From IMG/VR virus record IMGVR_UViG_3300032261_000007, positions 1 through 55,954 of that record: a DNA stretch of 55,954 nucleotides; one strand, given 5' to 3'. The position numbers and the translations under genes were made by a program. Each line of letters opens with the position of its first letter. Positions within the stretch are counted from its first letter, which is position 1. The notes under the pieces are model-generated. The model did not search any database and was not told where the DNA came from. It saw only the letters and a list, made by a program, of their open reading frames with translations. The stretch is from a virus. Lineage: Duplodnaviria > Caudoviricetes. Positions 2,462-54,881 of this stretch are shown here, in pieces.

Positions 2462-4321
2462 CTAACAAATTCGCTTGACGACGCAAGTGCCGCTCAGAGT
2501 CGAGTTAGTGCCCCATGCGCCGCCACTCAACGGCTGACTGACGTCGATGGTGCCGAGTGACGTCCAAACCGTATTGTCCTGCCACGCCATGAAGCCAGCC
2601 GCCGGACCGCCCGCTAACGCGCTGTCGTATTTGATCGTCTTGGCAATCGTGTAAGTGGATATTGTCATGTGCATATAAAACGGCCCAATGTCGTTGAGCG
2701 TATCGGCTGGATTGCCCTGTGGTCCGTCAAACAAGTCAAACAAAAAGGCACCGGCTGGCGTGCCCCAATTGTTCGAGATTGGACTCTGATTCAGATAAGG
2801 CGGGTTGGGTATGATCGTCGGTCGCATATCCGAGTTGAGCACTTCCCATGTAACGATAACCGCGCCATAACTGGTGTTGTTTGCTTGCAAACGTAGGTCA
2901 GTGTTGCGCGAATTGCTGACTTGGACGTACAGCAACAGATCATAAAGACCCTGCACCGTCGCGATATGCAACGGCAGCGACGTTGCGTTAGTAAAGGTGA
3001 TGGTGATCTGATCGCCGACGGCCATTGCCATATCGCTCGCGGGTGGCGACGACAAATCGAAACTGTCGTATGGCCAGCGCGCATTGACCAACTGCCAATA
3101 GGTGCCGTCGTAGACAAAGAGGCAGATCACGCCAACGCGCAGATCACGCGGCTGCAAGGTCAGATTGTTGCGGCGAATAGTGGCTGGCGATGTGCCGTTG
3201 GCTTGCAGCGTAGCGCTGCCGGAATTGGTATAGGCGATCTGAACTTCGACGGTCAGCCCGGCGGCCAGCGACGTGATCGCGGGCGAGAACACGCCGTGCA
3301 CTGCGTTGATCGCGCCGGAATCGACCGCAAACGGAATGTTGATCGTATAGGTGTTATTGTTGGTCGTGGTCGAAGTGAAGCCGAAGAAGTTCAGCGTTTG
3401 CCACGCCGCGCCGTCCCACAACAGCGCCAGTATCTCGCCGGGATTGATGTCGCCCGAAGCCAGTTGCGCGCCGTTGGCGCGATGCACCGGCTGCGCGCCG
3501 AGACCGTTCAGATTGAACGTGACGTTGCCGGTGTTCTGAAAAGCGACGCGCACCAGCACGCCGGTCCCCGGCACCAATTGCGTGACCGGCGGATAGATCG
3601 TTGCCGCCATGGCGTTAAGCACGCCGTTATCGACGCAATAGGTCCACAGATTGGTCTGCACGTCGTTCGGCACCGACGGCAAGGTCGGGAAGAACGGCGC
3701 AAAGGTATTAAGAACGATATTCGCGCCAGTGATCGCGACCTGACCATTGACGACGGTGATGTAATACAACCCGGTGTAACCGGCATCCGGCGTTGGATTG
3801 ACTTGCGTCCCGGTCGGCGCTGGCGATCCGGCTTTGAGCGCAATCGTGCACTGCACTGACCGGATCGTGTATTGCGACATGCCGTCATTGCCGGGGCCGC
3901 TGTACGGCTGTGACGGGTTCGACGCATTGTAATAGGGCAGCACAGCGCTGCCGGTATCGACATCGGACAGGATTGCTTCGACCAAATAGACCTGACTGTA
4001 ACCGGGCGTGCTCGGCGGCGTGACCGTCAGCGTGACCGGATTAGCCAGAATGCCCTGCTTGACGATGTTGTGCGTGTCGGTGCCGAGATCGCTGTACGCG
4101 GTGGCATCGGTCATGTCCAACGTATAGATCGCACCATTGCCAACCACGACCTGCAGACTTGCGGGTACGGTGGGCGTGCACTGTAAATTATGCACTTCGG
4201 TGGTGGTGCCGAGAATGCCTTGCAACGCATAGCCAAGCCCGATCATCCCAAACTTGTTGGTGTTCAGAACGTCAGACGTCTGCGGCAGCGCCGCCGAATA
4301 GACGATGGCGCGATCTACCAT
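2462..4321 (-). CDS. Tail fibre protein (baseplate-proximal)
   Basis: Follows baseplate wedge genes; two tandem ~85-aa domains (YCVDNG..NTG..NGLG..WDG..WQ and FAVDSG..NSG..NGTS..YDG..WQ). Confidence 0.75.
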   Translation of the reverse strand: MVDRAIVYSAALPQTSDVLNTNKFGMIGLGYALQGILGTTTEVHNLQCTPTVPASLQVVVGNGAIYTLDMTDATAYSDLGTDTHNIVKQGILANPVTLTVTPPSTPGYSQVYLVEAILSDVDTGSAVLPYYNASNPSQPYSGPGNDGMSQYTIRSVQCTIALKAGSPAPTGTQVNPTPDAGYTGLYYITVVNGQVAITGANIVLNTFAPFFPTLPSVPNDVQTNLWTYCVDNGVLNAMAATIYPPVTQLVPGTGVLVRVAFQNTGNVTFNLNGLGAQPVHRANGAQLASGDINPGEILALLWDGAAWQTLNFFGFTSTTTNNNTYTINIPFAVDSGAINAVHGVFSPAITSLAAGLTVEVQIAYTNSGSATLQANGTSPATIRRNNLTLQPRDLRVGVICLFVYDGTYWQLVNARWPYDSFDLSSPPASDMAMAVGDQITITFTNATSLPLHIATVQGLYDLLLYVQVSNSRNTDLRLQANNTSYGAVIVTWEVLNSDMRPTIIPNPPYLNQSPISNNWGTPAGAFLFDLFDGPQGNPADTLNDIGPFYMHMTISTYTIAKTIKYDSALAGGPAAGFMAWQDNTVWTSLGTIDVSQPLSGGAWGTNSTLSGTCVVKRIC

Positions 4322-39865: not shown

Positions 39866-40333
39866 TCAAGTCGCAGGAGCCGGGGCCGGGGCAGGCGTCA
39901 CACCGCTGGTGCCTTGGCCGGGCGTATTGGCCGCCACCGCATTGGCCAGCGAGTTGGCATTGGCATTGATTTCATCGACCAGCGACTGCAACGCCGCCGG
40001 GTCTTCCGACGCCATCGCATCTTTTAACTGTGCACTCAGTTGCTGCAGCAATGCGGTCACTGCATTCACCACATTGGTCTCGCTCGCGATCGCGGTACGC
40101 ACGTCGTCTAGGGTCGCCATAGCTTGAGTCTCCCCACTGATAAGCTGATTAAGCTGCTGCTCGATCCGGGCCAATCTGGCATTGAGAAGCGGAGCCCACT
40201 GCCAGAAAAATACCGGCTTGCCACTGTCGGAGAGTTTTGCTTGCGCGTCAACGTCAACCCTTTGCTCCATGCGCTTTAATCGGCGATCCAGCGCCATCAC
40301 GGATTCAGACACGGTCCTAACGGTTTTCACCAT
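39866..40333 (-). CDS. Coiled-coil hypothetical protein
   Basis: Coupled to the TerL stop; possible internal start GGAG..MATLDDV. Confidence 0.55.
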   Translation of the reverse strand: MVKTVRTVSESVMALDRRLKRMEQRVDVDAQAKLSDSGKPVFFWQWAPLLNARLARIEQQLNQLISGETQAMATLDDVRTAIASETNVVNAVTALLQQLSAQLKDAMASEDPAALQSLVDEINANANSLANAVAANTPGQGTSGVTPAPAPAPAT

Positions 40334-41769
40334 CAGTATTCTCGCGGCCCGGAGCCCGGGAAATAACGCGGCGTGCCGACGAACAGCGGGCTGACCACAG
40401 GTGGCGCGGTTGCGCCCTTCAGCATCAAGTCAGTCAGCGCCCATACCATGGCGTCAAGACGATCGGGTGACGGCTCGTTCGATAGCGGCTCCCACGTCGT
40501 CAGTTGCAATTCCAGTTCGGGGAACGGGACAGCGTGGCTGACCTTTCCCTGCTCATAAAGCGCCGCCACCGGCTCAGCGCGCGCCTGCTTTGAATGCCGG
40601 GCATGCACAATCCGCACCGGCATGTTCTTGCGCACCGTCTGAATATTGACGCGGACAAGCTCGCCGCCCTGATTGCCTTCGGCGATGATTCGGTCGGCCT
40701 TGTACTGGTCATAAGCCTTGACCACGGTTTTGGCCCATCGATCCGGCGACAGCCGCCCGCTCAGATCGGCCAGCACATAGGCCCTGCCGTCCACGCCAAG
40801 CGCTGCCACCACGATGCCGGTCAGGCTGGACTGGCCACCCACGGTCACTGCCGGATCGACGCCGACCACAATGCGCTTGAAGTCGGGCAGCGGCGCATTG
40901 ACTCGCGCCGCCTCGATCATCGTCCACGACCATAAAGCTCCTTCTGCCTGCTCAAGAACCTCGCCAAGTAGCTCTTGACGACCAAGTCTTGTCCCTTCGT
41001 ATTTTGCAATGATGCTTGAGTAAAACGGTGAAGCCAAAGCGGCGCGGTTGTCGTAAGTAGTCGCCCGCGTAACCACGCAAGTCGGCTTGTCGCCACTGGC
41101 CAGCCTCAACAGCTCACGGATGATCGGAATCGGCTTCGGCGTGGTCGAGATCATCGCCTGCGGATTGACGCCGACCCGGAGCCCGAACATCGCATTGTCC
41201 CAAGCTTCGGTGGCATTATCGCGGACCTTTGACCGCGGCCAGCTTGCAAGCTCGTCGGCCCACAGCGCGCCATGCTGCGGACCGCGCAGCCGTTCCGGTT
41301 CTTCCGCAGTGTAGAGCGTGGCCGTGCAGCCATTGGCCCAATGCAACTGCCGCTTGGACGGCTCGTAGATCGGGCGGCCCATTAGCTCGCCCTTGCAATC
41401 GAAGTCGCCTTCGAAGCTGTTTTCGAGCAGCCCCGAATCGGCCTCGATCATGACCTTGCGGGCGCTATCGGTGGTCGGCGCAATCAAGCCGATATGGCGG
41501 ATGCGCTGCTTGACCTTCTGCCGCACCCATTCCGATCCGGCCCGGGTCTTGCCCGCACCGCGGCCCGCCAGAAATAGCCAATACGACCAGTCGCCCGGCG
41601 GTGCCTGCTGCTCATCACGACCAACGGAACCCCACGAATGCCAGACATTATCGGCGGTCGCTTCGCCCTCGATGCCTTGCTGGCGCAGCTTGGCGAAGTA
41701 ATCCTTGATCGCAGCTTCGGGATCGGCGGTTGCGTTGGCGGCGTCGGCGATGTCGTTCAGATGCGGCAT
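40333..41769 (-). CDS. terL: Terminase large subunit
   Basis: Walker A AGRGAGKT, Walker B LWADE, LRGPQ, nuclease GVDPA and DRLDA. Confidence 0.95.
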   Translation of the reverse strand: MPHLNDIADAANATADPEAAIKDYFAKLRQQGIEGEATADNVWHSWGSVGRDEQQAPPGDWSYWLFLAGRGAGKTRAGSEWVRQKVKQRIRHIGLIAPTTDSARKVMIEADSGLLENSFEGDFDCKGELMGRPIYEPSKRQLHWANGCTATLYTAEEPERLRGPQHGALWADELASWPRSKVRDNATEAWDNAMFGLRVGVNPQAMISTTPKPIPIIRELLRLASGDKPTCVVTRATTYDNRAALASPFYSSIIAKYEGTRLGRQELLGEVLEQAEGALWSWTMIEAARVNAPLPDFKRIVVGVDPAVTVGGQSSLTGIVVAALGVDGRAYVLADLSGRLSPDRWAKTVVKAYDQYKADRIIAEGNQGGELVRVNIQTVRKNMPVRIVHARHSKQARAEPVAALYEQGKVSHAVPFPELELQLTTWEPLSNEPSPDRLDAMVWALTDLMLKGATAPPVVSPLFVGTPRYFPGSGPREY

Positions 41770-42195: not shown

Positions 42196-42681
42196 TCACG
42201 CGGCGATCGCTAGACTCCCGGCTGCAAACTCGACCCGGGTCAGTTGCCCAAGAATCGAGACAAACGCAACCTCGCGGTCGCGGGTGGTCATTCGGTCGAA
42301 CGTGCCAATCAGCCCGCTGAGCGGTCCTTGCTTGACGCGCACACGCTGGCCTTGGCGGAAGCCTCTACGGATAGTGATGACGCCGTCGCGATCTTCACGC
42401 GCCTTGATCTCGCCGATCACTGCGTCATGCAATAGCGCGGGCCGATCATCCTGCACAAAAACGGCATCGACGCCGCAGGTGGTACGGATCAGATACCAAA
42501 CCGGAACGAACAGAACAAAAAAGTAACGACCAAACAAATAACTCTCGACCATCTGCTTATGGCCGCGGAAGAACCTGCGTTCACGGAATCTCGGGAAGTA
42601 TGTTTCGAAACCGCGATCCTCAAGGAAGGTGCGGGCTACAGCTTGCTTGCCGTTTTCTGATGTCGCAACCAGCCACGGCAT
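42196..42681 (-). CDS. NusG/RfaH-family transcription elongation factor
   Basis: NGN: W.V..L..RGFE.YFP..LF.RYFFV..I..T.GV; KOW: F..GQRVRVKQGPLSG..G. Confidence 0.85.
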   Translation of the reverse strand: MPWLVATSENGKQAVARTFLEDRGFETYFPRFRERRFFRGHKQMVESYLFGRYFFVLFVPVWYLIRTTCGVDAVFVQDDRPALLHDAVIGEIKAREDRDGVITIRRGFRQGQRVRVKQGPLSGLIGTFDRMTTRDREVAFVSILGQLTRVEFAAGSLAIAA

Positions 42682-48027: not shown

Positions 48028-49068
48028 TCACGCAGCCTTCTCGACGACCTTGAACTCACCTTCGATGATCTTGCCACCGAAAGCCTCAAGCTCGTCGGCC
48101 CGATCGTAGGACTCGACGTCGTGCGCTGTCCGCGTCACCGCGTTGGCGATGCCCCACCGGGACAAGTCGCCACCGCTGATCAAGTGGCTCAGCACACTGC
48201 CGCGCTCGCCTTCGTTCAAGCTCAGCCGCTCGGCCAGCAACTCGACGGCCTTGACCGGATCGCCTTCGATCTTCTCACCAGCGGCTTCTTTCATCTTGCC
48301 GACTAGCTTGCTGAAGGTCTGCTCGGTGAGCACTGCCCGGACCACGTCCCTAGCTTTGAGCAGGAACGCTTTGTCGTCGGCCCGCAGCGTCTCGTCGGTC
48401 AGCATCTCGTAAACGTCTTCGGTCGTATCTGCGCGACTGCCGACGTGATACTTACGGAAACCGCCAACCGGGAAGCGCATGCCGTTCAGGCAGACCAGCC
48501 GGTGAGCGAACGGCCACACCGCCATCGCGCCGTTGCCGATCTCACCATTGGTGATCTCGATACCGGCTTCGACGATATCGCCGACCTTGATCTCGGATCG
48601 CAGGGTCGGGAGCGTTGCCTTCAAGTACATCCGCGAGTCGGTCAGTGCCAATGACTGGAACTGAAGCTCGGGATGAGTCTGAAACTCAGGCAGCACCGCG
48701 GCCAGCGTATCCTCGTGCTCGATCCGCTGATACCGATCGGACAAGAACGCTCGGACCCGACCGCGTAACACGCGGACCATCCGACGCTCGTGATCCTGCT
48801 TGAACCAACGATTGCAGTTAGCCGCGTACAGGTCCGGCGCTTCGGCGCGCATCTTGTCAGCGTACTTGGCCGGGATGCCAAGCCGCGTATCAAGCTGCCG
48901 GTGCGTGTAGTCATCCATTGGCCACGCGCCCTGACCGTTCACGGCCAGCGTCTTGCCGTCATCCTGTACGACTAGCTGACGCGAGTCGGCGATCATGTCG
49001 CGCTTTTGCGCGCGCGCATCTTCGACAGCCTGCGCCAATTCAATCACTGACTTGTACTGTGTTTTCAT
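48028..49068 (-). CDS. DUF932/DUF945-like phage-plasmid protein
   Basis: RAFLSDRY, N.E.G.G, RLVCLNGM, HVG and W...NAVT motifs; strong SD. Confidence 0.78.
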   Translation of the reverse strand: MKTQYKSVIELAQAVEDARAQKRDMIADSRQLVVQDDGKTLAVNGQGAWPMDDYTHRQLDTRLGIPAKYADKMRAEAPDLYAANCNRWFKQDHERRMVRVLRGRVRAFLSDRYQRIEHEDTLAAVLPEFQTHPELQFQSLALTDSRMYLKATLPTLRSEIKVGDIVEAGIEITNGEIGNGAMAVWPFAHRLVCLNGMRFPVGGFRKYHVGSRADTTEDVYEMLTDETLRADDKAFLLKARDVVRAVLTEQTFSKLVGKMKEAAGEKIEGDPVKAVELLAERLSLNEGERGSVLSHLISGGDLSRWGIANAVTRTAHDVESYDRADELEAFGGKIIEGEFKVVEKAA

Positions 49069-49125
49069 GGGATTTGGCTCCTTTCAGCCGGGTTGGTTAC
49101 CATTTGTGCCCTTTGCACAATGCAA

Positions 49126-49154
49126 ATATAAGCGCTGGTGGAACCGAATGCAAC
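49126..49154 (-). promoter_or_regulatory. Leftward sigma70-type promoter
   Basis: GTTGCA-N17-TTATAT on the minus strand, upstream of the DUF932-like gene. Confidence 0.55.
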
Positions 49155-49189
49155 CCCAAAAACCCTGATTTTGCAGCCTATTAGGCCCC

Positions 49190-49218
49190 CTTGTATTCTA
49201 GGACCAGTGGTCCTATAT
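49190..49218 (+). promoter_or_regulatory. Rightward sigma70-type promoter with overlapping palindromic operator
   Basis: CTTGTA-N17-CTATAT (alphaproteobacterial consensus CTTGAC-N17-CTATAT); perfect TAGGACCA-G-TGGTCCTA at 49199-49215. Confidence 0.7.
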
Positions 49219-49221
49219 CTA

Positions 49222-49560
49222 AGGTGCAGGTCGGCAGTACCGGGGCGGATGCCCCTCGTGGCCGGTTCCCGGGACCCCTTCTTCCTGCTTCTCCACGGCG
49301 CGCGAAGAGCGGCCGTCACCAGTTCCGCCAGTCGGGCGGGGCGAGAAGGTTCCGGGCGGGATCAAGCCCCATTGAGCCACGGAATCATTGCGGTCTGCCC
49401 GCTGTAACGACGGCCGAGTCGGCCAAGCCACTGAAGACTCTTTCTTTGTGTGCACTTCGGTGCTCGCAAAGAAAGGGTCGTAACCTTTGCGGCGGGACAG
49501 CTTCGAGCCCGCCGTTCATTGGGCGGGTTACTCCCGCCCCGCGATTTCCAGTCTGAACCT
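49222..49560 (+). ncRNA. Structured ~340-nt leader or ncRNA of unknown family
   Basis: Ends pair (AGGTGCAG/CTGAACCT); nested helices; UUCG-capped long hairpin; no SD-led ORF. Confidence 0.55.
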
Positions 49561-49586
49561 TCTTCACCCAACCAACGGAGTCCTGA

Positions 49587-49823
49587 ATGTCTGCCTTCAA
49601 ATCGCATCTGAAGTCGATCGCCAAAGCCGTTTCTTGGCGGTTCGTCGGCGCGCTCGACAGCTTCGCGATTGCCTATCTCGTCACCGGCCATGCCGGTGCC
49701 GCGGCGGGCTTCGTCGGCTTCGAGATCGCCACCAAGAGCCTCTGGTACTACTTGCACGAGCGCGCTTGGGAGCATCCCGTCCTGGTGAAAGCGTTCGGCA
49801 AAGCGCCGAACGCTGCTCACTAA
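49587..49823 (+). CDS. DUF2061-like small membrane protein
   Basis: SIAKAVSWR..D....Y..TG..E..TK..YY.HER.W. Confidence 0.8.
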   Translation: MSAFKSHLKSIAKAVSWRFVGALDSFAIAYLVTGHAGAAAGFVGFEIATKSLWYYLHERAWEHPVLVKAFGKAPNAAH

Positions 49824-49854
49824 TCCCCACCATCAACCAACAGGGAGTCAAGCA

Positions 49855-49938
49855 ATGCTTGCTTTCTTGAAGTGGGTGTTCACGACCGACGAAGTAGTTC
49901 CTTCGCCGGTCTTCGCCGAGATCATGTCGGCGAAGTGA
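49855..49938 (+). CDS. 27-aa peptide
   Basis: GGGAG SD; MLAFLKWVFTTDEVVPSPVFAEIMSAK. Confidence 0.45.
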   Translation: MLAFLKWVFTTDEVVPSPVFAEIMSAK

Positions 49939-49983
49939 TCACTAAGGGCGGCCTTCGGGCCGCCTCATAGTGTTCACAGTTTT

Positions 49984-50825
49984 TGCCGATCGAGCGTGCG
50001 CACGCTGTGTGACGGTCGGCTACGTTCTTGCTTCGCCTTGGGTGGGTCAAGGCTACAGCGACCGGCAGAGAAAAACATCTGAGTACGAGTCGCAGAGCGG
50101 AGTGGAAATCTCCGCACAGTTCGAACGGCGCACGGTCGCCGTAAGCGTGAAGCCTATAGGGCAGGATGCCTTGGGCTGGTGATCGCATCCGTGACGCCGC
50201 GCGGGCGGCGACAGCGTCGGCCGACGCACCCGCATCAATTCGGGGCGTTAGTGCAGCGGCCAAGCACGTCGGTCCCTCAAACCGAAAACGCCGGGTTCGA
50301 GTCCCGCACGCCCTACCAAAACGACGAGCGTGGTCCGTACCGGCAAGTGAAAGACCTTGCCACGGAGTACTCAGCGCAAGCTGCGAAGCCACGACCGGCC
50401 CGCCAATGGCTTGAGGGCGGGCACCTTAAATCATCTGCACCACGTAAGAGTCCGGCCCAAAAGAGCCGCTAACAAACGAGTATCGGCTAAGCGCCGACGG
50501 CGGGGATAAGCTGGCACGTAGCGTGGCAGGCGCGAGCCTAACGACCACTGTTGCGGTGCAGATAAAGACGCAAGCGTTCGTTCGAGCAGCGAGCCCGGTC
50601 ACCGCGAACCCAAAGCGGCCCGGGCGGCAGACCCGGCTTTTGCCTGCAGGAAACCCACTGCCGAACGACGCGGAGCTTGCGGGGAACCACCGGCCGATCG
50701 GAATTGCCCAACGGGCCAAACGGGATCGGCGGTTGGTTTCGGCGGGGCGTTCCGGCCTATGGCCGTGCGGTCAAACCGCAGCCTTGCACGCTGGCGTCGC
50801 GTGCAACGCCCCACCGATACCAACC
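49984..50825 (+). ncRNA. Large ornate structured RNA candidate (GOLLD-like or novel) containing a tRNA
   Basis: About 840 nt with no credible gene; many hairpins and GNRA loops; long-range pairings. Confidence 0.6.
50242..50318 (+). tRNA. tRNA-Glu(CUC), atypical
   Basis: Acceptor GGGGCGT/ACGCCCT, D arm GTGC/GCAC, anticodon stem TCGGT/ACCGA with loop CC-CTC-AA, GTTCGAG T loop, encoded CCA. Confidence 0.8.
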
Positions 50826-53614: not shown

Positions 53615-54208
53615 ATGACCGACCTACCGATCGAGCGCATAGCCCGTGTCATCAAGCACAGCGGCTATGACATCACCGTGACCGACGAGTACCGCTTCAA
53701 GATCAGCGGTCCTGACTACGACAAAGATGAATATCCGGCGGACACGCTGAGCGCAGCCAAGCGGAAGATCGACGACCACATCAAGACCCTGCACAAGCAG
53801 CAACAGATTCGAAAGCGATTGAACCTGAAGCTGCGCAACCGTGCCGGCGTGTTGGTCACCATGCGGGGCTTCCACGCCAAGAACGGCAACATGCTGAGCA
53901 CGCCCGACGTGCCGCGGTACACCGACGTCTATCCCGATGTGCCTTGGATCGTCGAAGCGCTGGCTAAGCGTGCCGAGCTTAACACCGCGATGAATAAGAT
54001 CGACGGTGAGTTGCGACCGTTCGGCTTGAAGTCCAACCAGTACGGTCACCGCGACGCCGACGCCTACGAGCGCGAGCTAAACAAATGGCTCGACGAGCTT
54101 AAGGTCAAGACGGCCGCGGCCATCAAACGGGTGCAAGACGCAATACCGGCGCGTGGCAATCTCGCGGCAGATACCCGGATAACAAACCCTAACCAGCAGG
54201 GCATCTGA
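53615..54208 (+). CDS. Hypothetical protein
   Basis: 197 aa; AAGGAG SD. Confidence 0.65.
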   Translation: MTDLPIERIARVIKHSGYDITVTDEYRFKISGPDYDKDEYPADTLSAAKRKIDDHIKTLHKQQQIRKRLNLKLRNRAGVLVTMRGFHAKNGNMLSTPDVPRYTDVYPDVPWIVEALAKRAELNTAMNKIDGELRPFGLKSNQYGHRDADAYERELNKWLDELKVKTAAAIKRVQDAIPARGNLAADTRITNPNQQGI

Positions 54209-54266
54209 TCACCTCCCCTTCAGTGGCTTGGCCCGCTCGACCACCAAGCCTGAAAGGAGTCTAACC

Positions 54267-54479
54267 ATGGGACTGTATGTAGTTCACCTAATCCAAGCAG
54301 CGTACCGGCAGCGGCCCGACAAGCCGCCGCTCAAGGTGCTTTATAATGGCGACGATCGCGCTGCCGCGCTCGACGCCGTTACGGCTGCGCATGAACGCCC
54401 GGAAAATACCGGATTGTACGTGCGCTTTTACGACTTCCATATGTTCGGCGGCGGCATGAAAGACACGGCAATCACATGA
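54267..54479 (+). CDS. Hypothetical protein
   Basis: AAGGAG SD before MGLYVV. Confidence 0.55.
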   Translation: MGLYVVHLIQAAYRQRPDKPPLKVLYNGDDRAAALDAVTAAHERPENTGLYVRFYDFHMFGGGMKDTAIT

Positions 54480-54730
54480 GAACGATCAAAGCCGTGATCC
54501 TGCTCGCCCTGCTGCTGTTGCACCCGCTGCCAGCCTACGGCGGCGACCTGTACCGTATCGGACCCGGGCCGCCCTACGGCTACGGCTATTCCGGCCCCGG
54601 CAGCTATACCAACGTGCCCGACCCAAGCTGGCCGGACCTGCACGCCATCCAACAGCGAGACCGCTATGACACCCGGCCGCCTGCGCCTGCTCCTGACCGA
54701 GCACGGGCTGAACCAGACCGAAGCCGCTAG
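54476..54730 (+). CDS. Small secreted Pro/Gly/Tyr-rich protein
   Basis: Signal peptide; ATGA overlap. Confidence 0.45.
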   Translation: MRTIKAVILLALLLLHPLPAYGGDLYRIGPGPPYGYGYSGPGSYTNVPDPSWPDLHAIQQRDRYDTRPPAPAPDRARAEPDRSR

Positions 54731-54881
54731 GCTGTGCGGCGTCGAGCCCCGGACCGTGCGGCGCTGGCTGGCCGGTGACCGGCCGATCCCGCACTGGATC
54801 GATCGGCTGTTCTGGCTGATCGATCTGGCTAGATCAAAGAAGGCGACCGACGCCCGGCAGATGCTCAAGACCCTCGAATAA
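54666..54881 (+). CDS. XRE/Cro-type HTH regulator
   Basis: GLNQTEAARLCGVEPRTVRRWLAG..PIP. Confidence 0.8.
   Translation: MTPGRLRLLLTEHGLNQTEAARLCGVEPRTVRRWLAGDRPIPHWIDRLFWLIDLARSKKATDARQMLKTLE

Follow-up and report, generated by a model that had tools for sequence, protein, structure and literature searches.

In the c4 system of phages P1 and P7, known for the heteroimmunity of the two phages, RNase P cuts an RNA of roughly 70-80 nt out of the leader, and pairing takes place via two short loops. RNase III stems, such as those flanking the 16S and 23S rRNAs or those found in the T7 early mRNA, are duplexes of at least 20 bp between sequences lying kilobases apart in one transcript, alongside long local hairpins that separate functional units. 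The P1 operon is described as consisting of c4, icd, and ant1/2, with the C4 RNA, made from the start of the operon, blocking the rest of it (PMC8198154). The HK022 put element is about 70 nt long, folds into two stem-loops, and is located after both early promoters (PMC9378689). The canT element, located in a stretch of 452 nt, has no effect in trans and depends on its orientation (PMC9378689, PMC11658703), and LoaP is described as needing a small UNCG hairpin in the leader of its target operon (PMC12691694).

The phage locus analysed here shares features with several of these systems. Like P1/P7 c4 and P4 CI, it has a predicted structured RNA at the start of an operon, with exposed bases complementary to a downstream site in the same operon. 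As with the cis-acting putL/putR, EAR, canT, and pLS20 conAn2 (PMC9378689, PMC11658703), the structured leader RNA follows the promoter of a long mobile-element operon. The presence of a NusG-like phage protein together with a hairpin-rich leader is, in addition, reminiscent of LoaP systems.

The DNA in question, 55,954 bp long, comes from IMG/VR, where it is a linear virus record with an estimated completeness of 81%; this whole stretch is referred to as the window. DNA near-identical to it occurs in 20 soil metagenome runs, and the 24 runs listed include no RNA run. The leader region (49222-49560) lies within a 518-nt gap between the divergent DUF932 (- strand) and DUF2061 (+ strand) genes, and the rightward genes, from 49587 to about 54900, are small and carried by the + strand. 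The features of the locus and their coordinates are collected in Table 1. In the leftward operon, the large terminase gene is immediately preceded by the NusG-like gene, a position that suggests that read-through along this long late operon is under the control of a protein.

Table 1. Features of the window relevant to the leader region and the rightward operon.
Feature	Coordinates	Strand	Remarks
Leftward gene block	1-49068	almost all -	Includes the large terminase and the NusG-like protein
Large terminase gene	40333-41769	-	
NusG N-terminal-domain protein	42196-42681	-	PHROG "transcription antiterminator"; Pfam NusG, E 7.9e-07
DUF932 gene	48028-49068	-	Left flank of the leader region
Putative rightward promoter	49191-49219	+	-35 TTGTAT (49191-49196), 17-nt spacer, -10 TATATC (49214-49219)
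5' sub-domain	49226-49288	+	Closed by GCAGG/CCUGC; small hairpin at 49242-49255
Three-way junction	49289-49347	+	UUCUC/GAGAA closes hairpins A and B
Hairpin A	49295-49316	+	Loop GAAGA; both-sided changes in 5/8 pairs
Hairpin B	49322-49342	+	Loop AGUCG; two invariant U.G pairs
Variable-length hairpin, GGUUCCG/CGGAAUC	49348-49386	+	One pair changed on both sides
Small hairpin S1 (GCGG UCUGC CCGC)	49390-49402	+	Kept in 5/5 sequences
Hairpin S2 (GGCCG AGU CGGCC)	49412-49424	+	Invariant in 5/5 sequences
Single-stranded linker AAGCCACUGAAG	49425-49436	+	Varies between phages
Long hairpin M2, UUCG apex (49456-49459)	49436-49479	+	19 pairs, one internal mismatch
Separable 3' unit M3	49466-49552	+	Hairpins 49473-49488, 49489-49515, and 49521-49539 (loop UURCU)
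DUF2061 gene	49587-49823	+	Pfam PF09834, E 2.3e-16; first coding sequence after the leader
Terminator-like hairpin after small ORF	49946-49966		Rightward operon
tRNA-Glu (CUC), intact	50242-50318 (Rfam match 50242-50315)		Rightward operon; sole Rfam match in the window
Gene preceding the distal arm	53615-54208	+	Rightward gene
Distal arm	54218-54242	+	Untranslated gap between genes 53615-54208 and 54267-54479
Gene following the distal arm	54267-54479	+	Rightward gene
Helix-turn-helix protein, 71-82 aa, conserved	54666-54881 (window); 562-810 (L015)	- in L015	Last gene of the rightward operon in both phages

One relative in IMG/VR, L002, was found by neighbour-protein and RNA-pattern scans, with 76% identity in DUF932. 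Metagenomes yielded five contigs (L008, L009, L010, L011, and L013), and L012 comes without the upstream region. L011 is identical to the window and L013 is identical to L002 in the leader region, while L009 and L010 are more diverged. L008 (1-358) is a natural, partial recombinant within the leader, matching L002 up to hairpin B and the window beyond it. The comparison thereby covered five distinct versions of the 5' part and four of the 3' part, each of them from the same phage lineage. Searches with blastn of GenBank phages and PLSDB plasmids gave no match to the leader region; DNA-pattern scans of IMG/VR found no relative beyond L002, a pattern scan of metagenome contigs gave 0 matches, and genome-contig scans with protein alignments found no relative, apart from one irrelevant DUF2061 locus. 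In L005, a DUF932 phage that is further removed (44% identity), the upstream genes are ordinary ones, and neither covariance model matches it. Four DNA runs were compared with the window; their contigs come from a strain almost identical to it and show a single SNP in the leader, 49248 G>C, which was present in three of the four; the position is unpaired, and L002 has A there.

A rightward promoter is proposed upstream of the leader because the site is conserved in the relatives, the positions and spacing of its hexamers being kept in four phages (window, L002, L009, and L010). A consensus promoter scan returned 0 sites; TTGTAT-17-TATATC scores 8/12 hexamer matches, below the threshold. The rightward transcript would be expected to start near 49225-49227. 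The placement of the RNA in the preliminary description, from a promoter start to a point before the DUF2061 Shine-Dalgarno sequence, agrees with the window, but the consensus scan flags no promoter at its beginning. The promoter spacer holds the palindrome AGGACCAGTGGTCCT (49200-49214), which changes symmetrically in L009 to AGGCACAGTGTGCCT. By reading of the sequence, the leftward promoter is better than the rightward one (TTGCAT-17-TATATT in the window, TTGACA-17-TATATT in L009), and it was noted to be followed by a further palindrome, TTGTGCCCTTTGCACAA, in the window (49100-49165). These palindromes look like operators, with a specificity that would differ between relatives, and the helix-turn-helix protein at the end of the rightward operon is a candidate to bind them.

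The leader region is non-coding, and conservation in its first domain is higher than in the genes on either side. Against L002, single-base gaps occur at three places in the first 140 nt, and such gaps also occur against L009 (within 49222-49360); further insertions of 8, 8, 75, and 2 nt separate the leader from L002, and the stretch that the leader has in common with L010 is in another reading frame there. A coding reading was ruled out, since no frame is conserved and the frames are broken by 1-nt indels. The first domain (49222-49360) is 88.3% identical to L002, which exceeds the identity of the flanking genes (76.0% for DUF932 and 76.9% for DUF2061). Rfam 15, run on the whole window at gathering thresholds, placed no family on the leader and reported only the tRNA. 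Relaxing the cut-off to an E-value of up to 10 for 48900-50500 gave mir-2068 (19.2 bits against a gathering threshold of 99) and Xoo2 (15.1 bits against 45) as the best overlapping hits, and the relatives had no match at E up to 0.1. The lack of a known family stated in the preliminary description has thus been upheld, no curated family having reached its gathering threshold. A literature search for DUF2061 paired with an RNA motif found no paper on that pairing. The leader is a real, conserved, and previously uncatalogued structured RNA region, known up to now from a single lineage of soil phages, and it constitutes a new RNA family with a putative function.

The preliminary description depicted 49222-49560 as one fully folded molecule of about 340 nt. 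The sequence strings that it quoted are present where it had placed them, and the minimum-free-energy fold of the window alone does pair both ends. With -164.9 kcal/mol against a mean of -143.1 for shuffled sequences (z -3.53; 0/100 shuffles as good), and with the opposite strand at z -2.14 (3/100 as good), the modelled fold appears somewhat better than chance and better on the + strand, in a region of about 65% G+C, where stable folds are cheap. The relatives do not preserve this drawing. The 3' partner of the end pairing AGGTGCAG/CTGAACCT is absent in L002, and the arrangement differs in L009 and L010; the closure CGTGGC/GCCACG occurs in the window only. The pairing CTGCCCGCTGTAA/TTGCGGCGGGACAG (49396-49408 with 49487-49500) loses 7 of its 13 pairs in L002, by reading, and competes with the local hairpin 49489-49515, which covaries. 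Similarly, ATTGCGG/CCGCGAT competes with a local GCGG/CCGC hairpin that is kept in all five versions. The helix system CCCGGGA..CCTTCT/AGAAGG..CCGGG fits the window, L002, and L009, but it has zero covariation and competes with the RNAalifold consensus. The UUCG hairpin of about 20 bp (M2) was confirmed, with a conserved base and an apex of variable length.

Covariation divides the original proposal: the local hairpins covary, but the global fold, the end pairing, and three of the four other long-range pairings fail or conflict. Single-sequence minimum-free-energy folds of four versions likewise have the local hairpins in common and not the long-range pairs. The unity of the molecule also had to be abandoned, as the 3' unit is separable from the 5' unit; between the covariance-model matches of the 5' unit and M3 lie 24 nt in the window, 99 nt in L002, 499 nt in L009, and 802 nt in L010. 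The 499-nt gap of L009 holds DUF2061, the small ORF, and their hairpin, and the 802-nt gap of L010 consists of other non-coding sequence. What is retained of the earlier interpretation is a conserved, non-coding element at the RNA level on the + strand, but not a single closed fold.

The local helices were derived with RNAalifold (two and three sequences) and two covariance models, which gave a consistent set. The 5' sub-domain has one both-sided change, G-C to C-G (RNAalifold on window, L002, and L009), and is strongly diverged or different in L010. The helix UUCUC/GAGAA that closes the three-way junction is invariant in four sequences and does not form in L010; the junction fold accounts for 80% of the ensemble, with z -2.32 and -33.1 kcal/mol on the + strand against -28.6 on the - strand. 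The loop of hairpin A, GAAGA in the window, L002, L008, and L009, is GCAGA in L010. Hairpin B has a both-sided change in one of its eight pairs as well as one wobble change, and it is invariant with its flanks in the window, L002, L008, and L009. The variable-length hairpin, with an interior of 25 nt in the window, 41 nt in L002, and 13 nt in L009, is deleted in L010, where S1 is longer through extra A-U and G-C pairs. The linker of L009 is unlike those of both the window and L002. The long hairpin M2 reaches -29.9 kcal/mol (z -7.0) on the + strand against -20.6 on the - strand, and in L002 it shows three both-sided changes and a 75-nt apical expansion, whereas L009 and L010 carry other apical parts on a GACUCUU base. 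M3, in which the linker GUUCAUUG (49514-49521) is conserved, was found by covariance model R1 as one copy per phage, at 75-94 bits.

In the 5' core (five sequences), 99.4% of the 173 cells are paired and both-sided changes occur in 7/37 pairs, with 0-1 of 500 shuffles reaching the covariation values and slid partners being 38-52% paired; the respective values for M3 (four sequences) are 94% of 84 cells and 10/21 pairs, with 0/500 shuffles and 43-61%, all of these counts coming from few, related sequences in alignments fitted to the models and thus being supportive rather than proof. One L009 hairpin was misaligned by the model, which lowered and did not raise the covariation numbers. G.U cells, by our own count, number 16/173 in the 5' core and 9/84 in M3, and the module z-scores are only -2.3 to -2.4, M2 excepted. 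The local hairpins covary and favour the + strand, and the modules occur in different arrangements among related phages.

Several further observations concern these arrangements. The 5' half of the small M3 hairpin (49473-49488) shares bases with the 3' strand of M2 (49460-49479), so the two cannot form together, as the same bases are used; by this structural modelling, the overlap may be a switch. L009 and L010 have a comparable small alternative hairpin beside their separated copies. Another long hairpin module, with a conserved interior, AAUGCCGACACUUCACAGC...AGCGGCUCACG, was seen in L009 (about 370-450) and L010 (about 2085-2165, - strand); in L010 it takes the M2 position with an M2-like stem base, and in L009 it lies just before the next gene. 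DUF2061, a conserved small ORF of 27-33 aa (window 49856-49939), and the covarying GC-rich hairpin behind it behave like one cassette. This cassette (window 49587-49966) follows M3 in the window, L002, and L010, and in L009 (about 850-1260, - strand) it stands between M2 and M3. A second conserved non-coding block lies at 50434-50570, where identity to L010 reaches 94% across 47 nt. The helix UCUGCAC/GUGCAGA, in which L009 has one both-sided change (C-G to U-A), closes this block around internal hairpins; it has no Rfam match, and its L009 counterpart comes directly after the M3 unit. At the place in L002 that matches the window tRNA-Glu (about 2985-3040, - strand), an apparent 3' part of a tRNA can be read, where cmscan called no tRNA.

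The leader contains an arm that is complementary to a distal untranslated site, and the two sites co-vary in one relative. In a search of the leader against the window, 49421-49436 proved perfectly complementary over 16 nt to 54218-54233 of the same strand (E 0.004), and on extension 23 of 25 positions can pair between 49412-49436, comprising S2 and the linker, and the distal arm, 4.8 kb downstream on the same strand. A pattern search for the complement gave 2 matches against 0.05 expected, and 0/100 shuffles had two. The longest perfect long-range complement in the rightward region is 16 nt in the window, which otherwise has two 12-mers only, and 14 nt in L002, where this counterpart is the only one of at least 12 nt; in the whole L002 contig, only these two sites match within one mismatch. 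Between the window and L002, the leader arm has three substitutions (49419, 49429, and 49432), all three of them compensated in the distal arm (U.G to A-U, C-G to U-A, and U-A to C-G), and of the five differences in the distal arm, three are the exact partners of the leader changes. The cognate duplexes, of 23/25 pairs in the window and 24/27 in L002, were calculated at -45.1 and -42.9 kcal/mol, and the swapped partners at -34.5 and -36.6; for the remaining 76-nt segments of the operon the mean is -24.9 kcal/mol (sd 4.7), the best unrelated one reaching -37.4. Both arms are visible in two phages, the window and L002, as the L009 and L010 loci end short of the distal site.

We infer that the two arms, as RNA, form a duplex with each other. 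The genes right after the distal arm differ between the window and L002, and the distal untranslated region has no local structure shared by the two phages (consensus -2.2 kcal/mol). Occlusion of a ribosome-binding site by a local hairpin in that region was considered and dropped, there being no shared local fold. Given the terminator-like hairpin and the tRNA between the arms, one continuous transcript is putative.

The explanation that we prefer, with a probability of about 0.5, is a cis-leader RNA of modular build, an exposed part of which would pair with the untranslated region at the distal site. In place of a single globular RNA, the rightward operon would begin with a 5' leader made of modules that fold independently, one after another: a 5' unit of about 215 nt with the three-way junction and small hairpins, the long hairpin, and the separable 3' unit of 85 nt. 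S2 and the linker would pair with the distal site, either within one long transcript or after processing, and the resulting duplex of 23-24 bp would regulate the genes at the end of the operon, the final one of which encodes the conserved helix-turn-helix regulator, by providing a site for double-strand-specific (RNase III-type) cleavage or by antisense control of translation. As in c4, the bases of the putative pairing vary between related phages and are matched in the target (here in 2/2 phages). The C4 family gave no match to its Rfam model among hits at the gathering threshold or at E up to 10, and the arrangement differs from c4 in that the target is 3-5 kb away and not close by, and in that one imperfect duplex takes the place of the two short loops. 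Measured against RNase III stems, M2 with its about 20 bp and the arms with their 23-24 bp are similar as far as can be told from sequence; the predicted M2 and the predicted arm duplex are both long enough for RNase III, whose substrates have double-stranded RNA that runs almost uninterrupted for some 20 bp or more. M2 would likely be a second double-strand processing or stability element.

The main rival to the cis-leader pairing explanation, which we consider unlikely, is that the leader or one of its modules is a cis-acting processive antitermination RNA that binds the polymerase and brings about read-through of the hairpins and tRNA in the operon, whether alone, as HK022 put, Bacillus EAR, and Tn916 canT do, or in a LoaP-like manner with the phage NusG-like protein. 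The leader comes immediately after an early-type promoter in a mobile element, as putL and canT do, the operon has the terminator-like hairpin and the tRNA to be read through, the phage encodes a NusG N-terminal-domain protein, and the invariance of hairpin B and its flanks is what a protein-contact site would be expected to show. Against this, no sequence or model similarity to any curated family was found, and a leader of this kind is missing from the leftward operon of 49 kb, where the need for read-through would be greatest; the covariance models pick up no further copy anywhere in the window and none after the leftward promoter. Unlike put, there is one leader of more than 300 nt with several modules, after the rightward promoter only. 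The LoaP-like variant faces the difficulty that the NusG-like gene belongs to the other operon and that the sole UNCG loop is not conserved; a LoaP-type UNCG hairpin was accordingly rejected, with UUCG present in the window only and replaced by a branched 110-nt apex in L002, a UGA loop in L009, and another hairpin in L010. The co-varying distal complementarity would also be left unexplained by antitermination. A lambda N-like system was considered as well, the loop of hairpin A being one that we liken to the lambda nutL boxB loop; in lambda-type nut sites, which consist of boxA and boxB, the GNRA-like pentaloop of the boxB hairpin is bound by an arginine-rich N protein from the same operon. 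The window encodes a 142-aa protein with an arginine-rich N-terminus, the corresponding first proteins of L002 and L009, translated by eye, do not have one, and no conserved arginine-rich partner was found among the three.

It is improbable that the element acts at the DNA level, with the arms as inverted binding or recombination sites and the GC-rich repeats as protein sites of a control region or origin. The region does lie at the switch between leftward and rightward genes, next to the operator-like palindromes, and inverted repeats that change together would also be expected if one protein recognised both or if recombination homogenised them. Such a reading does not sit well with the compensatory changes that keep many local hairpins or with the G.U pairs, which are mismatches on the other strand. 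An origin or iteron array was rejected for want of a repeat family; the region contains no iterons, just one weak direct repeat of 2 copies at 71%. No recombinase was recognised beside either arm, as the 197-aa protein encoded next to one matches nothing in PHROG or Pfam, and the two phages are collinear in the order of their genes from one arm to the other, which speaks against insertion or inversion behaviour; an invertible or transposable segment between the arms is for now rejected on these two grounds. Just as improbable is a discrete, stable, trans-acting RNA (a ribozyme, a protein sponge, or the like) that is released from the leader and acts on factors of the host or the phage. In T4, the tRNA cluster gives rise to stable RNAs of unknown function, and the transcript here also carries a tRNA, which makes it a target of processing enzymes; a specific binding surface is suggested by the 45 nt around hairpin B and the junction, a core that is invariant. 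Against this reading, neither a closing helix nor a 3' end is conserved, none of the modules is followed by a terminator, the relatives do not keep the global fold, and the members of the family differ by whole modules. Nothing was found that points to the ribozyme or protein sponge of the preliminary description, and nothing in the sequences would indicate catalysis.

Beyond the cis-leader pairing explanation itself, a bolder and rather doubtful proposal is that the first 1.5 kb of the operon is an island of at least three unrelated, conserved, structured RNA modules and the tRNA, with the modules shuffled between relatives, and that the duplex is an RNA-only device for timing or immunity specificity. 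If this were true, a co-evolving duplex of 23-24 bp with a site 3-5 kb downstream would enclose nearly all of the early operon, in the way that rRNAs are enclosed by processing stems, and the device would be of a kind undescribed for tailed phages. Phage early leaders are where put antitermination and the c4 and CI immunity RNAs were first found, and RNA-based controls of this sort have few examples outside the enteric model phages; the present case comes from an uncultured soil phage lineage. Should the pairing at the RNA level not be real, the element would still be a new family of structured phage RNA. Should it be real, the locus would offer a testable case of operon-wide RNA control, with the prediction that any relative whose linker differs has a distal site to match it.
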